Notes: a model not told the origin generated them from the letters alone. Shown: positions 5,511 to 27,119, numbered from the stretch's first letter. The stretch is 64,000 nucleotides of DNA from Minisyncoccota bacterium (GCA_046350775.1 JAXLZS010000001.1:416342-480341), one strand, 5' to 3'. Translations and numbers: made by a program.

Positions 5511-8500
5511 TTAGTTAATTAAGATAATTTCCTCCTTTTGAGATTCTTCAAATTTTATATCAGACAATTTACAGTCTTTAATTAATTCTTCTTTAAAGCT
5601 TTCGATAAAATCTTTTCTTTCTGAATTGGTTTTAATCAAAAGAGAAACAACATCACTGGCGACAAGATTGTTTTCTTTTCTTAGATCTTTTATCTTTCTT
5701 GTGAGCTCACGATAATCCCCTTCTTTTTTTAATTCTGGAGTTATCTCAAGATCTAGAATTATATTTTTACCTTCTTCATAATTTTGTTTTTCATCTATCT
5801 TTATATCTTTGACATTGATTTCTTCTTTTAGAATTTCAAAATATTTTTCGTCTATTTTTATTTTTGTAGTTAAAGAAGATAGCGGCTGACGGACTGGAAT
5901 ATTATTTTTTTGTCTTACCATGAGAGCTTCGGTGACTACATCTCTCACTTTTTGCATGTCTAGTAATATTTCTTCTTTATTTGATCGAAGAGAAAAGAAT
6001 TTTTCTGGCCACTTTTCAAGATGTACACTTTCTTTTTTGTCTTTATTATTTTTATTTATTGACTGATAAATTCTTTCAGCCAAAAATGGCATAAAAGGAG
6101 CAATGACTAGAGAGAATTTATTCAAGACAAAATACAATGTATACAAAGTCTCATCGTCATCATTTTTTAATTTTTCCCTTGATCTACGCAAATACCAAGT
6201 AGATAGATCATCTATAAACTTTTCAAAAGGACGAGTTGCTTGATCGAGTCTATACTGATCCATAGACTTTGTAGTATTTTCTAAAATCTCATTTAGTCTG
6301 ACTAATATCCAGAGATTGAGAGGATCTTTTATCTCAATATTCTTTGGCATATCTATATCTAACATTTCATAAAAGCTTAAAATATTTTCCAATTTTGAAA
6401 CTATTTTCTTATAACTTTCTTCTACGAGCGAATCAGGAAAAGCTACATTTTCAGCGCACATGAGTGGAGAGGAAAGTAGAGAATATCTAAACGCGTCTGC
6501 TCCAAATTTTTCTGCCAAAATCAGTGGATCTGTGTAATTATTTTTACTCTTACTCATTTTTTCCCCATCACCAGCCAATACTAGTCCATTGACTATGACA
6601 TTTTTATAAGAAGCTTTATCAAATATACCTACAGACAAGTTGAGTAAAGAGTAAAACCATCCTCTGGTCTGATCAAGACCTTCAGCTATAAAATCTGCTG
6701 GGAAAGTTTTTTCAAACAATTCTCTGTTTTCAAATGGATAGTGAAGTTGACCATAAGGCATAGATCCAGATTCAAACCAACAGTCAAACACATACTCAAC
6801 TCTTGTCATCTCTTTACCATTTTTACTTAAGAGTTTTACCTGATCTATGTATGGACGATGTAAATTGATTCTTCCTTTTTCATCTCTTGGCACCAGGCTT
6901 AGATTTAATTTTCTTATCTCAGCATTTCTTGGATAAAGTCTAGTATCATTAGATAACTCATCTTTTATCACCTCTTCTTCTGTGATCAGTTCACTACCGG
7001 CGATCATCATCCTCATTGGACCACCATGAGTGACTATCAATATTTTTTTACCATTATACCTTTCTTCTAAATTATAGATTCCAGCCATGACTCTATCCAT
7101 GACTTCTTGATGACTTTCCCCTCCACCTATCTTTACTTTAAATTTTAAATAATCAATACCTAAATCCTGGTGAAGTTTTTCTGATGTTTGACCACTATAC
7201 ACTCCAAGATCTATTTCTACAAAATGCTCATCTATCAATATTTCTTTGTCTCCGGCCATTATAGATGCTGTCTCTTTAGCTCTGGGATATGGTGAAGATA
7301 TTATAATATCGAAGTCTACGTTATTTTTCTTTTTAGCATCTTCCACTTGTATTACACCGAGATCTGTTAAAATATTTTCAGGGTCCATTTTAGTTTCTTC
7401 AATACCTTTCACATTATGCATAGCTTCTCCATGACGCATAACATAATATTCATTTTTGGGTTTTGCTATATTGGATTCTGTCAACTCTTTTAATGATCCG
7501 ATTATTCTTACTTCATCACCGTCCACCTCTTTCCAGATTGGTAGAGGAGCACCCCAGTAGCGACTTCTTGAGACAGCCCACTCACGAGCCCCCTCTAGCC
7601 ATTTTCCAAATCTTCCGTCACGTATATTTTCTGGAGTCCAATTTATTTTTTGATTTTCAGACAAATTTTTTTCTTTAATTTTTGGAACGTTTACAAACCA
7701 AGAGCTGGTAGCATAATTTAAAAGTGGAGTATCACATCTCCAGCAAGTTGGATATGCGTGAACTAATTTTTCTTTTGCAAAAAGAAGTTTCTTTTCTGCT
7801 AAATATTTTATGATACCAATATCAGCTGATTGGTTGTCTCTGGATGTCTTTACTTTTATACCAGCAAAATCTGTTACTTCTTTTGTAAATTCACCATTCA
7901 TCCCGACATGTTTGATAATAGGAAGTTTCTTTTCTTTTCCGAGATTAAGATCGTCTTCACCAAAAGCTGGGGCAATATGTACAACTCCAGTACCAGTATC
8001 AAGTGTCACAAATTCAGCATCCACTATGGTGTAAATATTTTCTTTATTTTCAAGATTTGCATCAAGATAATAATCAAAGACTGGTTTATATTTTTTACCA
8101 ACCAATTCTTCACCATTAAATTCTGAAATTATTTCAAATTCTAAATTTTCTTTTTTAAATACATCTTCTAACCTATCTTTTGCTAAGATAAAATTTTCTC
8201 CAGAATTTATTTTCACCTTCGCATATTCAAAATTTTTATTTACAGCGAGAGCTACATTTCCTGGTAAAGTCCAAGGAGTGGTGGTCCAAGCAAGCACAAA
8301 AGTGCCAAGCTCATCTACCAATTCAAATTTTACTGTCACAGAAATATCTGTCAGATCTTTATAATTTTGAGCAACCTCGGATTGAGCGAGAGTAGTCTCA
8401 CATCTTGGGCAGATATGCATACTTTTATGACCTTCAAAAACTAATCCTTTTTTATCGAGCTCTTTAAATGCCCACCAGACAGATTCAGTATAAGTATAAT

Positions 8501-8963
8501 CCAGAGTCTTGTAAGAATTATCCATATCTATCCAGCGACCAAATCTAGGTATTACATGCTTCCACTCCTCTTCATATGCAAAAACACTGGCTTCTGCAGC
8601 TTTATTAAAATTATCAATACCAAAATCCTCAATATCTTTTTTGGATTCCAAATCAAATTTTTTCTCGACTAGATTTTCTATTGGCAAACCATGACAATCC
8701 CAACCCCAGACTCTTCTGACATAATTTCCTTTCATTGTCTCATATCGAGGGATGGTATCCTTTATAGTACCAGCCAAAAGATGGCCATGATGTGGGAGAC
8801 CTGTCGCAAATGGAGGGCCGTCATAAAAACTAAAATTACCTTTTGGATTTTCTCCGGCTGGCTTTTCGAGAGATTTTTCAAAAATTTTATTCTTCTGCCA
8901 GAATTCTAAAACTTCTAACTCTTTTTCATTTATAGTTTTATCTTTGTTTTGATTTGGATTCAT
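5511..8963 (-). CDS. ileS: isoleucyl-tRNA synthetase (type 2) with an inserted histidine-phosphatase-like domain
   Basis: HIGH motif (PHHGHLLAG), KMSKS, WRCDTPL, WAVSRSRYWGAPLPIW and NLHRPYID. The ATG at 8961-8963 (MNPNQ) is the likely start; the ORF-track start at 8990 is a TTG. A roughly 200-aa block containing RHGEAMHN...THGG lies between PIW and LHRP. Confidence 0.85.
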   Translation of the reverse strand: MNPNQNKDKTINEKELEVLEFWQKNKIFEKSLEKPAGENPKGNFSFYDGPPFATGLPHHGHLLAGTIKDTIPRYETMKGNYVRRVWGWDCHGLPIENLVEKKFDLESKKDIEDFGIDNFNKAAEASVFAYEEEWKHVIPRFGRWIDMDNSYKTLDYTYTESVWWAFKELDKKGLVFEGHKSMHICPRCETTLAQSEVAQNYKDLTDISVTVKFELVDELGTFVLAWTTTPWTLPGNVALAVNKNFEYAKVKINSGENFILAKDRLEDVFKKENLEFEIISEFNGEELVGKKYKPVFDYYLDANLENKENIYTIVDAEFVTLDTGTGVVHIAPAFGEDDLNLGKEKKLPIIKHVGMNGEFTKEVTDFAGIKVKTSRDNQSADIGIIKYLAEKKLLFAKEKLVHAYPTCWRCDTPLLNYATSSWFVNVPKIKEKNLSENQKINWTPENIRDGRFGKWLEGAREWAVSRSRYWGAPLPIWKEVDGDEVRIIGSLKELTESNIAKPKNEYYVMRHGEAMHNVKGIEETKMDPENILTDLGVIQVEDAKKKNNVDFDIIISSPYPRAKETASIMAGDKEILIDEHFVEIDLGVYSGQTSEKLHQDLGIDYLKFKVKIGGGESHQEVMDRVMAGIYNLEERYNGKKILIVTHGGPMRMMIAGSELITEEEVIKDELSNDTRLYPRNAEIRKLNLSLVPRDEKGRINLHRPYIDQVKLLSKNGKEMTRVEYVFDCWFESGSMPYGQLHYPFENRELFEKTFPADFIAEGLDQTRGWFYSLLNLSVGIFDKASYKNVIVNGLVLAGDGEKMSKSKNNYTDPLILAEKFGADAFRYSLLSSPLMCAENVAFPDSLVEESYKKIVSKLENILSFYEMLDIDMPKNIEIKDPLNLWILVRLNEILENTTKSMDQYRLDQATRPFEKFIDDLSTWYLRRSREKLKNDDDETLYTLYFVLNKFSLVIAPFMPFLAERIYQSINKNNKDKKESVHLEKWPEKFFSLRSNKEEILLDMQKVRDVVTEALMVRQKNNIPVRQPLSSLTTKIKIDEKYFEILKEEINVKDIKIDEKQNYEEGKNIILDLEITPELKKEGDYRELTRKIKDLRKENNLVASDVVSLLIKTNSERKDFIESFKEELIKDCKLSDIKFEESQKEEIILIN

Positions 8964-22128: not shown

Positions 22129-22204
22129 GGGAGATTAGCTCAGTTGGTAGAGCAACTCGTTTACACCGAGAAGGTCAGAGGTTCGAGTCCTCTATCTCCC
22201 ACCA
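22129..22204 (+). tRNA. tRNA-Val (UAC); integration target of the downstream element
   Basis: 7-bp acceptor GGGAGAT/ATCTCCC, D-arm TAGCTCAGTTGGTAGAGCA, anticodon loop TTTACAC, T-arm GGTTCGAGTCC, 3' CCA. Confidence 0.85.
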
Positions 22205-23711
22205 GAATAGTACTTAGCGGTTTCTTCGAAACCAAGGTATGGGACGCACGAAGTGCGTCCCACTGTGTTTGCCCTGATTTTGCGGGGGAATTCTGAAATG
22301 CGGGTGCGCTTACGCGCACCTGTTTTTCGCCAAGAGAAAGGTTCGAGCCAAAGATTTCTTTGGCTTTGACCTTTTTAGCAAAAAGGTCAGTATCCCGTGC
22401 GATTCCGTCTAGTGTTTGCGCGTCTTTTATCCATTCTTTCATCGGTTCGAGCCAATCATTCTGTTTTTGTAGAACTGAAGATATTTTGTCTTCGAGCGAC
22501 TTCTTTTCGGATAACAATTTAGCTTTTTGTACACGATATATTTCCTGTTCAATCACTTGGTCTAAATATCCATTAAGAAGTCGCTCTAGTTTCACATTGA
22601 TTTTCAAAATATCTTTTTTCACTTCTTCTACAAAAACAGAATTAGACTGGGCAGAATTGTTGAAATCCTTTTCCGCCATTTTCAACAATTCTTTTGCCCA
22701 GTCTTTAGGCAAAGAAACTTTTTGAATTTCGGATGATATCTGCTGATCCAAAATTTCACTGCGAATATATCCTTGTGTACATTTGATACTTTTGTTTTTC
22801 TTGGAACAACGATAGTACACATGACCTTTTTGGATTTCAGCAGTTATCATCATTCCGCATTCGGTGCAGTGAAGTAGTCCGCAAAATGGTTGTGGCTCAT
22901 TTTTTGGTTTTCTATCGGGTTGTCCTCTAAATTTCAACATCGACTGCGCCGAATCAAAAAGTTTCTTTGCTATGATTGGCTCGTGCTTACCTTCGTGGAT
23001 TTCACCACCATATTTGAATAGTCCGATGTAAAATGGATTTGAAAGAATAAAAGACGCTTTGGTTTTTGAGATTCTCTTTCCGGTTCTTGTTGTAACGCCG
23101 GATTTCGCCAAAAAATTTGCAATATCTTCCAGTCGTTGATTACCTTTTACATATCGTTCAAAAGCCAAGCGCACAATTTTAGATTTTTTCTTGTCCACGA
23201 CTATGGTCTTGGTACGACTGTCATTCATATAACCGAGTGGCGCTTGGCTTGGAAATATTCCCATTCTCACTTTTTGGCGAAGTCCTCGTCTCGTATTTTC
23301 TGAAAGAAAATCTACATAGTATTTGCTTTGCACAAATGCCATGGAAAGTGAAAATTTCCCTTGTGATGTATTTTCAAACCAAAAAGTGGGAAATTTTAAC
23401 ATCGCAAGAGTACCGATGTCGATAAAATACACTATCTGTCCGCCGTCCACAGAATTGCGCGCTAGTCTGTCGGGATGCCAAGCCAAAATTCCTGAAGCTA
23501 CCCCTTGCTCAATTTTTTTCATCATACTGTTAAATATTGGACGACCTGGAATTTTGGCGGATTGTTTCTCGACCAACTCCTCAACTATCTCTAAACTTTG
23601 TTCACGAGCAAACGCGCGCAATTCCGTTAACTGTGCCTCAATACTCAAAACCTGCTTATCCTCGACATCGGTACTCTTGCGAGCATACAAAAAGAATTTT
23701 TGTGATGACAT
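22161..23711 (-). CDS. large serine recombinase (resolvase/invertase catalytic domain + recombinase domain + zinc ribbon)
   Basis: N-terminal FFLYARKSTDVEDKQVLSIEAQ (catalytic Ser), a Cys cluster CGLLHCTECG...YYRCSKKNKSIKC and a coiled-coil C-terminus. The last ~55 codons run through repeat A and the tRNA-Val 3' end and may be non-coding read-through. Confidence 0.8.
   Translation of the reverse strand: MSSQKFFLYARKSTDVEDKQVLSIEAQLTELRAFAREQSLEIVEELVEKQSAKIPGRPIFNSMMKKIEQGVASGILAWHPDRLARNSVDGGQIVYFIDIGTLAMLKFPTFWFENTSQGKFSLSMAFVQSKYYVDFLSENTRRGLRQKVRMGIFPSQAPLGYMNDSRTKTIVVDKKKSKIVRLAFERYVKGNQRLEDIANFLAKSGVTTRTGKRISKTKASFILSNPFYIGLFKYGGEIHEGKHEPIIAKKLFDSAQSMLKFRGQPDRKPKNEPQPFCGLLHCTECGMMITAEIQKGHVYYRCSKKNKSIKCTQGYIRSEILDQQISSEIQKVSLPKDWAKELLKMAEKDFNNSAQSNSVFVEEVKKDILKINVKLERLLNGYLDQVIEQEIYRVQKAKLLSEKKSLEDKISSVLQKQNDWLEPMKEWIKDAQTLDGIARDTDLFAKKVKAKEIFGSNLSLGEKQVRVSAPAFQNSPAKSGQTQWDALRASHTLVSKKPLSTILVGDRGLEPLTFSV
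22202..22331. repeat. inverted repeat A (left copy, about 130 bp, hairpin-dense)
   Basis: Its reverse complement matches 23901..24030 at about 93% identity. Differences fall in a hairpin and are compensatory (ggtgcgc...gcgcacc vs gtacgcgc...gcgcgc). Confidence 0.8.
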
Positions 23712-23728
23712 ATATTTTTCTATAAAGC

Positions 23729-23797
23729 AGAAATGGCTACTCCAGTGCTGTAACCTTAACGTAAGTTAAGATATCTGAAATAGCCATTTCTGCTAAC
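23729..23797. promoter_or_regulatory. imperfect palindrome upstream of the recombinase gene (candidate operator/recombination-site-like)
   Basis: agcagaaatggcta ... tagccatttctgct is a 14-bp outer stem, with an inner cttaac-gtaa-gttaag palindrome, immediately 5' of the recombinase start. Confidence 0.35.
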
Positions 23798-23900
23798 TTA
23801 CTAATAAAATGGTTACAGCAAATATATTCTACCAAAAATTCTTTTTGTATCCAAAGCAAATACTGAATTTGTATCGCACGGGATTCCGAACCTCCTCCTC

Positions 23901-24030
23901 GGCGAAAAACAGGTACGCGCAAGCGCGCCCGCATTTCCGAATTCCCACGCAGAATCAGGGCAAACACAGTGGGACGCACTTCGTGCGTCCCATACCTTGG
24001 TTTCGAAGAAACCGCTAAGTACTATTCTGG
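23901..24030. repeat. inverted repeat A' (inverted copy of A)
   Basis: See repeat A. Directly abuts repeat B. Confidence 0.8.
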
Positions 24031-24262
24031 TGTCTCTATTGTACCAAGCTCGAACGATTTTCCAAAACCGAACCTAATCGCACATCCGTGCGCTAAAGCG
24101 CCTCTGTGCGAAACACAGAGCTTTTGCAAAGCAAAAGGACGGATATGCGAAATGCAAATGCGGAACGCGAGCGAAATTTTGCGAAATACTGGGGGTGTGG
24201 GGGAAAGTATTTCGCAAAATTCGCTTCGCGTGCTTTGGGATTTTTTTGGCGGGGCGGGCGGT
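24031..24262. repeat. inverted repeat B (232 bp, 100% identical inverted copy at 25870..26101)
   Basis: A perfect match over 232 bp containing at least 5 hairpins, e.g. ctctgtg-cgaaa-cacagag, cttttgc-aaa-gcaaaag and a 19-bp stem gcgaaattttgcgaaatact/agtatttcgcaaaattcgc. Confidence 0.85.
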
Positions 24263-24293
24263 ATCAAATAGAAAAAACCAATTCTGTTTTTTT

Positions 24294-25725
24294 CTATTCA
24301 ACATCAACAATCAAAACATCATAAGGATTAAAAGCAATATAATCAAAAAGATTCACTTTAGTATCCGTTCTTGTTTCTTCGTTTTCATTTTGCTTTACCC
24401 ACACACCGTCATATTTACCTCTCCATTCTTGTGAATCTTTTGGATTAGCCCAATAGTTTGGTTTGGAATCAAAAATTTTGAAATTTCTACCATTAACAAA
24501 AACTTTATACGGTTTAGAAGTCTTACCTTCAATTTTTCTACCCTCGTGATGATGCTTTGCTTCTTCTTCATTTCCGAAAAATACACCAACTTCAAATTCA
24601 TTTCCGTCTATTTTCTTTTTTAGAAACAAATTCTTTAAATTTTTCAATATCAGTTTTTGAGCCAAGGATAGAAATTTGATCTGGATGAAAAACACTGATA
24701 ATTTTTTGTTTTGGTAATCCAAATTCTCGTCCTGAAACTGGATGTTTTTCAATATATTCTTCTCCCGAGATATTATTTATCACTGCATCTGTATTTTCTA
24801 ATTTTTCATCGAACTTTGGGGCTAATATATTCTTTTCTTTTTGCTTACCTATTTTAAACAAAGCTTCAGACAAAGGCCTGTCCATATCATCCACATATTC
24901 ACCTGAAGTATTGACCTCAATAGGATTATTGATATTCAAAATTACAGCATACGCATTTTTTCCGTATCTTTTAACAAAATTCTGACTTGTACTGAAATTA
25001 TAAACACCTTCAATGCTATTAAGCGTATCAAAGTTGGGCTTTGTTGGTTTAAAATTCTCATCTTTAAATTCATTATCAGAATAGTGCCAGACAATATCTT
25101 GCACTTTGCTTTCAGGAAAAATAGTTTTTAGATATTCACAATAAAGCTCAACTGCTTCTTTTGTCTCAAATTGTTTAACTTTTTCTTTTATTTGTTCTTT
25201 GGCTTTTTGTAAGTTCTCAAAATTACCAACTTTATCTTGAACATCATCAAGGTTAATATAATTTCGTTCTATATTTTCGGGAATAATATAGTTATCATTT
25301 TCAACATCCATTTGCGAAGCGATTGGATGTTTACTTACATGTAGATTTTCAAATTCTTCTTTTGGCACTTTTACAACTACCAAATTTGCACCCTCAACTC
25401 GCTTCGCCTCTGTGCCAAATGTCTGTTGTGATTTTCGTAAATATACAAGAGCAGTTTCTAAATCTGGCGAAAACCATTGACCCTTTAAATCTTTATGGGA
25501 AGTTACTCCATCAGGTTCTTTCTCAATATTTTTATTTTCAATACGATAAAGGGAAATGGTTTCGCCAGATTTTGTTGCTTCTACTGCAATACTCTCAAGT
25601 TCAGGGCTAAGTTTAAAAACCTCTTGTATATTTTTCTCCTGTTCAGAAAGCGGAAAATGCTCAAGCGGTTGCTCGGTTTTTGGCAATTCAATTTTATCAA
25701 CAGGATTAACTGGTGACTTTTCCAT
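24294..25725 (-). CDS. cargo protein of unknown function, about 475 aa if a +1 frameshift in an A6 run at ~24614 is corrected (ORF track splits it into 375 aa and 152 aa)
   Basis: The ...EFVSKKENRRK* frame and the FLKKKIDGNEFEV... frame differ by one nt inside ctaaaaaag. No recognisable catalytic motifs. Confidence 0.45.
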
Positions 25726-25869
25726 AAAGTGATTTTAACATTTTTCGCTTTCTTTTTCTAGTTATTTTAGGGAGCAGAATTTGTGCGCGAACGGGAGGGT
25801 GGGTCAAGCACAAACTGATTTTTGTATCTCGGCTTCGCCGAGATTTCAATGTTATGTATTTGAATTATA

Positions 25870-26101
25870 ACCGCCCGCCCCGCCAAAAAAATCCCAAAGC
25901 ACGCGAAGCGAATTTTGCGAAATACTTTCCCCCACACCCCCAGTATTTCGCAAAATTTCGCTCGCGTTCCGCATTTGCATTTCGCATATCCGTCCTTTTG
26001 CTTTGCAAAAGCTCTGTGTTTCGCACAGAGGCGCTTTAGCGCACGGATGTGCGATTAGGTTCGGTTTTGGAAAATCGTTCGAGCTTGGTACAATAGAGAC
26101 A
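25870..26101. repeat. inverted repeat B' (right terminus of the element)
   Basis: Reverse complement of 24031..24262. Ends at ...caatagagaca, followed by chromosomal caaaaatac. Confidence 0.85.
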
Positions 26102-26110
26102 CAAAAATAC

Positions 26111-26138
26111 AAATAAAAAAGCAAACCATAAGGTTTGC
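26111..26138 (-). terminator. rho-independent terminator
   Basis: Hairpin gcaaacc-ataa-ggtttgc preceded by an A-run on the plus strand (a U-run on the minus strand). Confidence 0.45.
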
Positions 26139-26156
26139 TGATCAGACAATTTTTTA

Positions 26157-26324
26157 TTAAATCCCTCTCCTGCGATTATATCTTACTGCCAGATTGTTTG
26201 CTAAGGATTCTCTGAATCCTTTACTAGAAACCTGACCTTTTTGATGGTTTGTGATTTCATCCTTCAGTTTATGAAGAAGCACATCACTAGGTGAAAGATT
26301 AAAATATTTTTTTTTGTTAGCCAT
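26157..26324 (-). CDS. small hypothetical protein (55 aa)
   Basis: Manual translation MANKKKYFNLSPSDVLLHKLKDEITNHQKGQVSSKGFRESLANNLAVRYNRRRGI. Confidence 0.3.
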   Translation of the reverse strand: MANKKKYFNLSPSDVLLHKLKDEITNHQKGQVSSKGFRESLANNLAVRYNRRRGI

Positions 26325-26414: not shown

Positions 26415-26963
26415 TTATTTCTTAGCTGTTTTTACTGTGTAATCTAGAGGATTTTTACTAGTAAAAATATCCAGAGCGAGTCCTACAGCAAAATCACCAT
26501 AGCTATATCTGTCCCCTTTTCTTATCTTTTCTGTGAGGAATCTGATATCTACCCCGGCTTTTACAAGAGATCTCATCCAAATATCAATAGCTGACATTGT
26601 AGCGTTGTGAGAAAGGGTTCTGGCTGTATCTTTATCTTTTAATTCAAGTTTATACCAAGTCAAATCACTTCTGTCTGCTGAAGCTGCTAATTCATGATCT
26701 ATAATACTTCTAAGATAATTGAAAGAATGCTTAACCACAGAGTTAAATGTTTTTTGTGTGACCTCTGAGACTTTACTAATATCCTTTAATTCTGATGCTC
26801 TTTTAGGAAGATTCTTAATCAATTTTTCTAACTCAGTATTAGGAGTTCTTAAAATCTTAGACACATCAGAGATGGTACCTTTTTGATGAGTACTCATTAG
26901 ATGATCGAACTTTCTAACCAAAACTTCTGGTGATTCGCTTTTTAAAAATGATTCTCTAAACAT
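26415..26963 (-). CDS. hypothetical protein
   Basis: 182 aa with no recognised motif. Confidence 0.3.
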   Translation of the reverse strand: MFRESFLKSESPEVLVRKFDHLMSTHQKGTISDVSKILRTPNTELEKLIKNLPKRASELKDISKVSEVTQKTFNSVVKHSFNYLRSIIDHELAASADRSDLTWYKLELKDKDTARTLSHNATMSAIDIWMRSLVKAGVDIRFLTEKIRKGDRYSYGDFAVGLALDIFTSKNPLDYTVKTAKK

Positions 26964-27047: not shown

Positions 27048-27119
27048 GATCTCATAGTTCAATGGATAGAACGAGAGCCTTCTAAGCTCTAGATGATGGT
27101 CCGATTCCATCTGAGATCA
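27048..27119 (+). tRNA. tRNA-Arg (UCU)
   Basis: Acceptor GATCTCA/TGAGATC, D-arm TAGTTCAATGGATAGAAC, anticodon loop CTTCTAA, T-arm GATGG-TCCGATT-CCATC. Confidence 0.75.

Follow-up and report, generated by a model that had tools for sequence, protein, structure and literature searches.

The described elements that come closest to the one considered here are the ssrA islands of Dehalococcoides, in which DsiB, a CcrB-like large serine recombinase (LSR), targets the T-loop of the transfer-messenger RNA (tmRNA); these islands are bounded by 20-bp direct repeats, carry a six-gene integration module with a second, small serine recombinase and accrete in tandem, and the paper that describes them makes no mention of inverted repeats (PMC3146451). 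Here we analyse an insertion at a tRNA-Val gene in a 64,000-nt stretch of DNA from a Minisyncoccota bacterium (GCA_046350775.1 JAXLZS010000001.1:416342-480341; hereafter the window, to which all coordinates refer), together with related elements in bacteria of the candidate phyla radiation (CPR). Like the ssrA islands, the CPR element has its integrase gene (rec) beside attL on the reverse strand, with the attachment (att) site embedded in that gene, and it combines variable cargo with the absence of conjugation and replication functions. In contrast to the islands, which have the tmRNA as their one target, a single gene in CPR is associated with at least 24 tRNA species, and the attachment site of the element (attP) occurs as an inverted duplicate. 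CPR bacteria, or Patescibacteria, have tiny genomes, and gene exchange among them is poorly understood.

A different resemblance is to Tn4451/Tn4453 and Tn5397, whose recombinases TnpX and TndX mediate both excision and integration, at many target sites, without a directionality factor (PMC5704250). As we suppose for the CPR element, a single large serine recombinase is the sole protein that they need, the crossover spans 2 bp and a circular intermediate is formed; however, they have one joint site, no long inverted repeats, loose GA targets and mobilisation genes, whereas the CPR element is found at tRNA ends. That the latter would likewise act independently of a recombination directionality factor is an assumption made by analogy to TnpX. 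The phage integrases (phiC31, Bxb1, A118/LI and SPbeta SprA) share with rec the catalytic, recombinase and zinc ribbon domains and, putatively, a coiled-coil-like insert, and their attP, too, is an imperfect palindrome around a central dinucleotide, but their targets are protein-coding genes rather than a tRNA end, and the CPR element appears to possess two attPs.

With respect to overall layout, the circle that would arise from the CPR element resembles the yeast 2-micron plasmid (FLP/FRT), in which two long inverted repeats with recombinase sites separate two unique segments. A preliminary description of the window, made from the sequence alone, had drawn this parallel; the two-segment inverted-repeat architecture holds up, the replicative side does not, and because no replication function is present the analogy is architectural only. 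Moreover, FLP is a tyrosine recombinase of a replicating plasmid in which inversion serves copy amplification, whereas the CPR element combines a serine enzyme with integration sites and has no replicon. In Tn3/gamma-delta, the three-subsite res lies beside the resolvase gene and is present as a direct repeat in cointegrates. The CPR site similarly adjoins the recombinase gene and contains promoter-like boxes, and binding there could regulate transcription, although autoregulation of rec at attP is a conjecture drawn from this analogy; in contrast to res, the CPR site is an inverted duplicate of an integration site, and rec has a separate promoter-like site in its leader. Finally, 910 of 937 tycheposons of Prochlorococcus use tyrosine recombinases and many have replication genes, and the paper describes no duplicated inverted att site (bioRxiv 10.1101/2020.12.28.424599). 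Tycheposons share with the CPR element a small size, the use of tRNA genes in streamlined genomes and the carriage of highly variable cargo.

The insertion at tRNA-Val and its attachment sites

Transfer RNA genes were called with ARAGORN and Rfam, and repeats with an inverted-repeat search of the window. The insert of ~3.9 kb (about 22203-26102) follows directly upon the 3′ end of tRNA-Val, whose CCA end is supplied by the element after integration. The junctions read ..tctatctccCACcagaatagtac.. at attL (tctatctcc-CAC-cagaatagtac) and ..acaatagagaCACaaaaatac.. at attR (acaatagaga-CAC-aaaaatac), and an internal site reads ..gtactattctgGTGtctctattgtac.., which on the minus strand is acaatagaga-CAC-cagaatagtac. 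CAC alone is common to the three, and attL and attR recombine on paper to exactly attP and the chromosomal target site (attB). Predicted empty sites (…TCTCCCACAAAAAT…) are present in related genomes, which were retrieved by a metagenome scan with the neighbouring pseudouridine synthase. In L085-L088 and L093 (L numbers denote related loci), tRNA-His, tRNA-Leu, the synthase gene and tRNA-Val follow in syntenic order and the recombinase is absent. The empty sites in relatives read ..CTCCCACAAAAAT.., and the sequence after the tRNA in L087 and L093, ...TATCTCCCACAAAAAT..., equals the window with 22203-26102 deleted; in L088, an identical tRNA-Val is followed at equal distance by a homologue of a 182-aa neighbour of the element. 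An insertion of this size at the tRNA 3′ terminus and a crossover of 2-3 bp had both been proposed in the preliminary description, and the empty sites and the common CAC agree with it. Judging by these junctions, the tRNA-Val insert is a real site-specific integrative element. Its attP is, as had been noticed earlier, a genuine quasi-palindrome, with GTAC 8 nt to either side, and because the palindrome is centred on CA, the exchanged dinucleotide is likely CA (C72-A73).

The repeats that surround the internal site form two inverted pairs, both far beyond chance: one of 146 nt (22200-22345 and 23887-24032; 92% identical) brackets rec, and the other of 240 nt (24023-24262 and 25870-26109; 99%) brackets the cargo. 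Furthermore, a 26-nt motif next to the attP core occurs in exactly 2 copies in the 64 kb, against 0 expected. We designate the outer and inner members of the first pair arms A and A′ (the P′ arm of attP) and those of the second pair arms B and B′ (the P arm). A′ and B′, the inner arms, meet at GTG 24030-24032 and thereby make up a complete inverted attP, so that the internal block is indeed, as had been claimed, the reverse complement of both termini. The repeat lengths reported at that time, 130 and 232 bp, have to be corrected to those given above, and the high identities then reported (93% for A/A′ and 100% for B/B′) are borne out with slightly lower values. A and A′ differ at ~10 positions, all at least 80 nt from the core; these differences had been taken for compensatory changes in hairpins, which in the window they are not, and the third hairpin is weaker in the inner copy (-54.0 vs -60.2 kcal/mol). 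The GC content is 47-52% in the arms, ~39-41% in the rec segment and ~30-37% in the cargo, against a host background of ~31%; accordingly, the characterisation of the insertion as GC-rich applies to the arms and not to the rec and cargo segments.

We propose, with a probability that we put at roughly 0.6, that the insert is the integrated form of a small non-replicative, non-viral element with two complete attPs in inverted orientation. The large serine recombinase would join attP to the 3′ end of a tRNA gene by crossover at C72-A73(-C74). One attP would be spent on this integration, yielding attL (tRNA joined to A) and attR (B joined to the flank), and the other would remain intact between rec and cargo; because one attP is split and the other intact, rec is bracketed by inverted P′ arms and the cargo by inverted P arms. 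The circular form would, accordingly, carry two inverted attPs. The internal attP is predicted to stay competent for recombination and could react with a second tRNA gene, which would leave rec between two convergent tRNAs, or it could replace the other site. Excision would proceed without an element-encoded directionality factor, as with TnpX; such a factor-independent enzyme is the simplest assumption because rec is the only conserved gene, and no directionality-factor gene is conserved or evident in the elements compared.

Relatives, targets and arms

The databases hold more than 7000 relatives of the recombinase; identity is 67% or more for each of the best 120, and every one of these with a named source is from CPR/Patescibacteria. 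At least 583 species-representative CPR genomes encode a relative, and the recombinase is 60-93% identical across different CPR classes. The literature, in a search that did not cover all journals, yielded no account of this CPR family or of a natural two-attP element, and an exact look-up of the window recombinase sequence returned no record; the family is apparently large and undescribed in CPR and seems to be among the commonest mobile elements of these bacteria. Among viral contigs, IMG/VR gave only 2 partial matches, and given this near absence we rejected a viral origin of the element. The preliminary description had made its reading depend on the recurrence of repeats around homologous recombinases, and the A/A′ repeat is found in 53 of the 58 loci with at least 330 nt upstream of rec (110-170 nt, mostly 95-100% identical). 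A complete adjacent B/B′ pair is present in 13 of the 31 loci with at least 3 kb upstream of rec (136-405 nt, enclosing 1.1-5.6 kb), and several further loci have partial pairs cut by contig ends. By these counts, the repeats are a hallmark of the family. The same architecture is seen in L001, where a 93%-identical rec lies at tRNA-Gly(tcc) with a different, 574-aa cargo, and on contigs of 200-620 kb (L006 and L034). In the closest relative in genome collections, L002 (Nomurabacteria, LacPavin; recombinase 93% identical; positions 6660-6700 and 8480-8503), the internal repeat coincides exactly with a stretch of N, and attL is devoid of the tRNA acceptor strand and the core (..GGGGTTCGAATCCCCA joined to TAATAGAAC..), which makes it a degraded copy or an aberrant junction.

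Several loci bear directly on the second attP. In L005, a rare variant, rec has a complete attP on either side; the two attPs are not the same (90.6% identical) and hence do not represent a collapsed repeat, a layout that would be the topology expected of a free circle. In L066 a complete attP follows rec; these two loci would fit the earlier proposal that a circle carries two inverted copies. Moreover, 19 of 120 homologous open reading frames (ORFs), mostly on contigs of 1.8-6 kb, read across the core into the P arm. The arms evolve in concert: for 42 of 48 elements, A and A′ resemble each other more than they resemble the arm of any other element. In another rare arrangement, two convergent tRNAs enclose the rec module, with the cargo module absent, in L008, L009, L020, L081 and L045, the last of which comes from CP060229.1, titled a chromosome (994,774 bp), and is placed between tRNA-Tyr and tRNA-Leu(taa). 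A reaction of the internal attP with a second tRNA would be expected to yield this arrangement. L035 combines arms of two lineages. L082 (286-360 and 9990-10474) contains an attP that adjoins clpB and has a P′ arm truncated to ~20 nt, as well as a recombinase fragment of 83% identity that, in inverted orientation, is joined to a further attP at 45 nt past the core; both features point to nesting or decay of elements and to rearrangement at the sites.

As for the targets, a tRNA gene lies antisense across the 3′ end of the rec ORF in 64 of 71 loci (those with sequence beyond the rec gene among the best 80), and 24 isoacceptors are represented. In the window, arm A overlaps the last ~48 codons of rec, and the end of the protein is encoded first by arm A and then by the tRNA in antisense; to this antisense tRNA the homologues owe their C-termini, in which ..ILV is always followed by a GxEP-type tail that is variable in sequence and contributed by different tRNAs. 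The left half of attB consists of the tRNA T-arm and acceptor end (GGTTCGAnTCC, 9 nt, CAC). In 15 other elements, the right halves are A-rich and otherwise unconserved, and attL and attR of 15 other complete elements have CAC or CTC in common. Elements at tRNAs with U73 (L056, L059, L062, L064 and L069) have CTC for CAC in attL and in the internal attP alike, and therefore the core follows the target in either copy. The consensus of 43 aligned internal sites is ..TTTTGAAAAT-AGGTTCGAGCTTGGTACAATAGAGA-CAC-CAGAATAGAACTnnnCGG.., and GTTCGA is 13 nt from CAC in the tRNA vs 17 nt in the P arm, that is, 4 bp further out. In serine integrases such as the LI/A118 enzyme, an outer motif lies further out in attP than in attB, with a 5-bp offset in LI structures. 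We suggest that the P arm mimics the T-arm/acceptor target with GTTCGA shifted 4 bp outward, which would account for the use of nearly any tRNA as a target, the mimicked T-arm being universal. Serine integrases normally have one specific site, so that acceptance of nearly any tRNA 3′ end is unusual for this class of enzymes, and the recombinase could serve as a host-independent integration tool. The sequence GGTTCGAG, the same motif as in the tRNA T-loop and the P arm, is also present at the inner boundary of each A arm (22338-22347 and 23885-23894), where it encodes an invariant G-S-N on the rec strand and could be an accessory recombinase binding site, predicted at about 140 bp from the core.

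The rec product matches Resolvase (PF00239; 7.8e-19, residues 7-151), Recombinase (PF07508; 4.1e-17) and Zn_ribbon_recom (PF13408; 1.4e-10) in Pfam, domains that uphold its earlier assignment to the serine integrases. R11, K12, S13 and T14, an R-x-S-T motif with the nucleophilic serine, are invariant in 25 homologues, and the cysteines C277, C282, C285, C302 and C311 are conserved. The best PDB matches are SPbeta YokA (4e-8) and the A118 integrase, and the identity to phage integrases is 27% or less; by these matches, rec is a divergent large serine recombinase. Helices are predicted at residues 336-384 and 389-418, a block with a predicted local distance difference test score (pLDDT) of 60-85 in an AlphaFold model that is poor overall (mean pLDDT 50.9, shallow alignment), and in this low-confidence model the long helices within residues 336-418 would resemble a coiled coil.

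In the rec leader, the sequence TTGGAT-17-TAGAAT (about 23853-23826) is promoter-like and conserved; across 37 loci, the aligned spacers share ACAAAAAGAATTTTTGC..TATAAT and a hairpin in two variants. This long covarying hairpin of the 5′ untranslated region (23726-23794) has a ~30-bp stem just upstream of the start codon; its variants, AGCAGAAATGG..CCATTTCTGCT and TTTTAATGGCCGTC..GGCGGCCATTTAAG, keep the pairing, the ACAAAAAGAATTTTTGC box before the stem is invariant, and G-U pairs are biased 229 vs 110 in favour of the rec-sense strand. The stem is likely a regulatory leader. In L045 (5648-7000), ~1.35 kb separate A′ from the rec start, vs ~175 nt elsewhere.

The P′ arm forms two covarying hairpins across 35 elements, in which 89% of cells are paired vs 33-46% in controls with a slid partner column, 12 of 14 pairs are changed on both sides, and the covariation score is 0.459 vs at most 0.124 in the controls. 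G-U pairs are concentrated in the core-to-P′ reading direction, which is that of tRNA read-through and of any transcript started in the P arm, and a terminator scan places T-rich tracts after the hairpins in both directions. Because of the covarying hairpins, the G-U direction and the tracts on both sides, we interpret the P′ arm as a putative substitute tRNA trailer and bidirectional terminator or insulator. The proximal 45 nt of the P arm contain the T-arm mimic (GTTCGAGC) and -35/-10-like boxes that face the core (24065-24038), with a copy in arm B at 26067-26094. In the window these boxes are TTGGAA, 16 nt, TG-n-TACAAT; they point across the core and are conserved, and they may be a promoter, in which case the P arm would drive transcription outward.

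Further from the core, the P arm is mosaic, being composed of GC-rich hairpin modules that depart from the phylogeny of the recombinase, with a rho to rec of 0.12 vs 0.51 for the P′ arm. One of these modules, a cloverleaf-like structure in which a long closing stem (CGCACATCCG / CGGATGTGCG) surrounds three hairpins, is present in the window (24070-24145 and 25985-26060), in L001 (5345-5420) and in L006, with 91-96% identity among the three, whereas the recombinases are only 81-93% identical. Hairpin modules seem to move between elements. Rfam searches of the region (E-value mode) and of the whole window found tRNAs only. Two further ideas about the arms were abandoned: UUCG tetraloops cannot serve as a strand marker, the loops being of 3 nt (GAA/UUC), and a single-stranded fold-back attP in the manner of CTX phage would, with double-strand exchange, leave hairpin-capped chromosome ends.

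The cargo differs in all 16 elements compared, rec being the only conserved gene, and a check of 30 cargo proteins revealed no replication domains. Across the family it comprises ART-PolyVal-like proteins, a HaeII endonuclease with Vsr, HydE/F/G, membrane proteins, surface proteins, a glycosidase, metabolic genes and an aminoacyl-tRNA synthetase fragment. The 375-aa cargo protein of the window (24598-25725, minus strand) has no Pfam match of its own, but homologues that are 49-57% identical to it pass the cut-off of PF18760 (ART-PolyVal), and it is probably, on this homology, an ADP-ribosyltransferase-type conflict protein. The small cargo ORF (24294-24752) corresponds to a called gene of 111 aa on other contigs. 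Contigs of 1.7-2.3 kb from other samples contain the window cargo segment with 100% identity, and on one of them it is joined to a different mosaic arm and a different flank; this cargo is present in the ENA records ERZ27283041, ERZ27282978 and SRR14234074. Many homologues of the 375-aa protein are on ~2-kb contigs, as expected for repeat-bounded cargo modules. Genes of a housekeeping type are present in some cargo segments: L014 (1905-2567 and 5397-6390) carries a Tyr/Trp-tRNA synthetase split in two ORFs, an aminotransferase, a Glu/Leu dehydrogenase and a DDE transposase of insertion-sequence type, and L067 (1180-6302) carries HydE/G-like radical SAM enzymes, HydF and a deoxyhypusine synthase.

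Weighing the readings

Several considerations weigh against an element with two functional attPs. All related loci come from assemblies, most of them metagenome bins built from short reads, in which contigs often end at the element repeats. In four of the five two-tRNA forms, the arms are only 83-89% identical or belong to different lineages (L045, with 97.6%, is the other), and such divergence means that these forms may stem from recombination between two elements. Moreover, rec faces the tRNA in about 90% of loci, whereas equivalent attPs predict that both orientations are common, and canonical LSRs are not known to excise without a directionality factor. The boxes of the P arm overlap the expected recombinase binding site and may be conserved solely for binding. 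Excision is suggested by circle-type contigs only, and use of the internal site and promoter activity are likewise predictions. A farther-reaching version of the two-attP proposal, for which we see a tentative case at best, is that of a natural double-att system: the retained attP would react with other tRNA genes, re-assorting rec and cargo by cassette exchange and driving inversions and deletions between tRNA genes. If this were true, gene flux and the rearrangement of genomes throughout CPR would be driven in large part by these elements, and their integrase would be a ready-made tool aimed at the universal tRNA T-arm. An active internal attP would be a standing substrate with about 40 other sites per genome and predicts tRNA-to-tRNA rearrangements and modular exchange of cargo.

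The inverted repeats around each unique segment also invite the interpretation, suggested by the 2-micron plasmid, that the recombinase or homologous recombination flips rec relative to the cargo, producing isomers that differ in expression or copy number. The concerted evolution of the repeats, the occurrence of cargo genes in either orientation relative to rec across the family, the location of the tRNA on the 5′ side of rec in L015, L049 and L082, and the frequent contig breaks at the repeats are all in line with flipping. However, in 64 of 71 loci rec has one and the same orientation with respect to the tRNA, and no related pair has the same cargo in both orientations; indeed, since every cargo differs, cargo orientation is uninformative. 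Furthermore, FLP-type copy amplification has no substrate where a replication gene is absent, canonical LSRs are not known to recombine attP with either attP or attL, and gene conversion alone accounts for the concerted evolution. On balance, we regard flipping as a plausible but less likely alternative. Two loci that might pass for flipped copies were set aside: the 1343-nt perfect palindrome of L083 reflects the ambiguity of de Bruijn assemblers at identical inverted repeats, and L082, with its truncated attP and inverted rec fragment, is a scrambled locus rather than a clean flipped copy.

The presence of rec modules between two tRNAs without the cargo module, the recovery of an identical cargo module with a different arm and flank, and mosaic distal P arms uncorrelated with rec would also suit a pair of adjacent, independent units, an autonomous transposon A-rec-A′ and a non-autonomous foldback element B′-cargo-B, with the internal attP as a mere junction. 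Yet the two units always meet at the same 3-bp core, and their outer ends are complementary halves from which attP and attB are recovered exactly, the signature of one conservative exchange between attP and attB; in addition, inverted sites do not allow a serine recombinase to excise the segment between them. This makes independent units improbable. Even less credence can be given to the notion of a structured RNA, encoded by the arms, that would act as a guide or partner of the recombinase as bridge RNA or seekRNA do, with the duplication as a second RNA gene. It would draw on the strong covariation of the hairpins, the strand preference of their G-U pairs and the promoter-like boxes facing the core, but the longest match of the arms to their own tRNA (7.45 nt) hardly exceeds that to other tRNAs (7.27 nt), the attPs of the window and of L001 differ at 1 base of 41 and yet go with tRNA-Val and tRNA-Gly, no Rfam family matches the arms, the shared T-arm motif explains target choice, and the enzyme is not a DEDD transposase. 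A guide-RNA role is thus largely refuted. The least probable explanation of all is an assembly artefact, in which a repeat copy was duplicated or mis-joined. It would be favoured by the near identity of B and B′ (99%) and by the frequency with which contigs of relatives terminate in the repeats. However, the differences between A and A′ at about 10 positions, together with the recurrence of the layout in many independent assemblies, including the contigs of 200-620 kb, exclude a collapse, and two independent contigs, L098 and L099, show 100% identity to cargo and arms. The element repeats systematically disrupt short-read assemblies of these genomes, which bears on the quality of CPR genome bins.

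Coordinates and neighbourhood

Features of the element in the window (positions counted from the first nucleotide of the 64,000)
Feature	Coordinates	Strand	Basis or remark
tRNA-Val(tac)	22129..22204	+	ARAGORN, Rfam 70.9 bits; T-arm and acceptor 3′ strand = left half of attB
rec, large serine recombinase (516-aa ORF)	22161..23711	-	Pfam domains
attL crossover core CAC (C72-A73-C74)	22200..22202	+	only identity common to attL, attR and internal attP
Arm A = P′ arm at attL	22203..22345	+	inverted repeat I2, terminator scan, covariation
rec leader	23712..23886	-	promoter scan, 37-locus spacer alignment
Arm A′ = P′ arm of intact internal attP, inverted copy of A	23887..24029	-	I2, 92%
Internal attP core (GTG on +, CAC on -)	24030..24032	-	sequence, junction table
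Arm B′ = P arm of internal attP	24033..24262	-	inverted repeat I1, promoter scan, 43-attP consensus
Cargo segment S2	24263..25869	-	375-aa ORF and small ORF
Arm B = P arm at attR	25870..26099	+	I1, 99%; promoter-like boxes facing chromosome
attR crossover core CAC	26100..26102	+	sequence; join of 22202 to 26103 = empty sites of L087 and L093
Right half of attB, A-rich tRNA trailer	26103..26140	+	hairpin at 26120-26139

Between the element and tRNA-Arg(tct) at 27048, two ORFs lie on the minus strand, one of 55 aa (26157-26324) and one of 182 aa (26415-26963), the latter with a weak match to DUF3232. The gap between tRNA-Val and tRNA-Arg is 6-66 nt in L085-L087 and L093, and the 182-aa gene is present in L088; the segment 26103-27047 of the window may be an older insertion at the same tRNA-Val.

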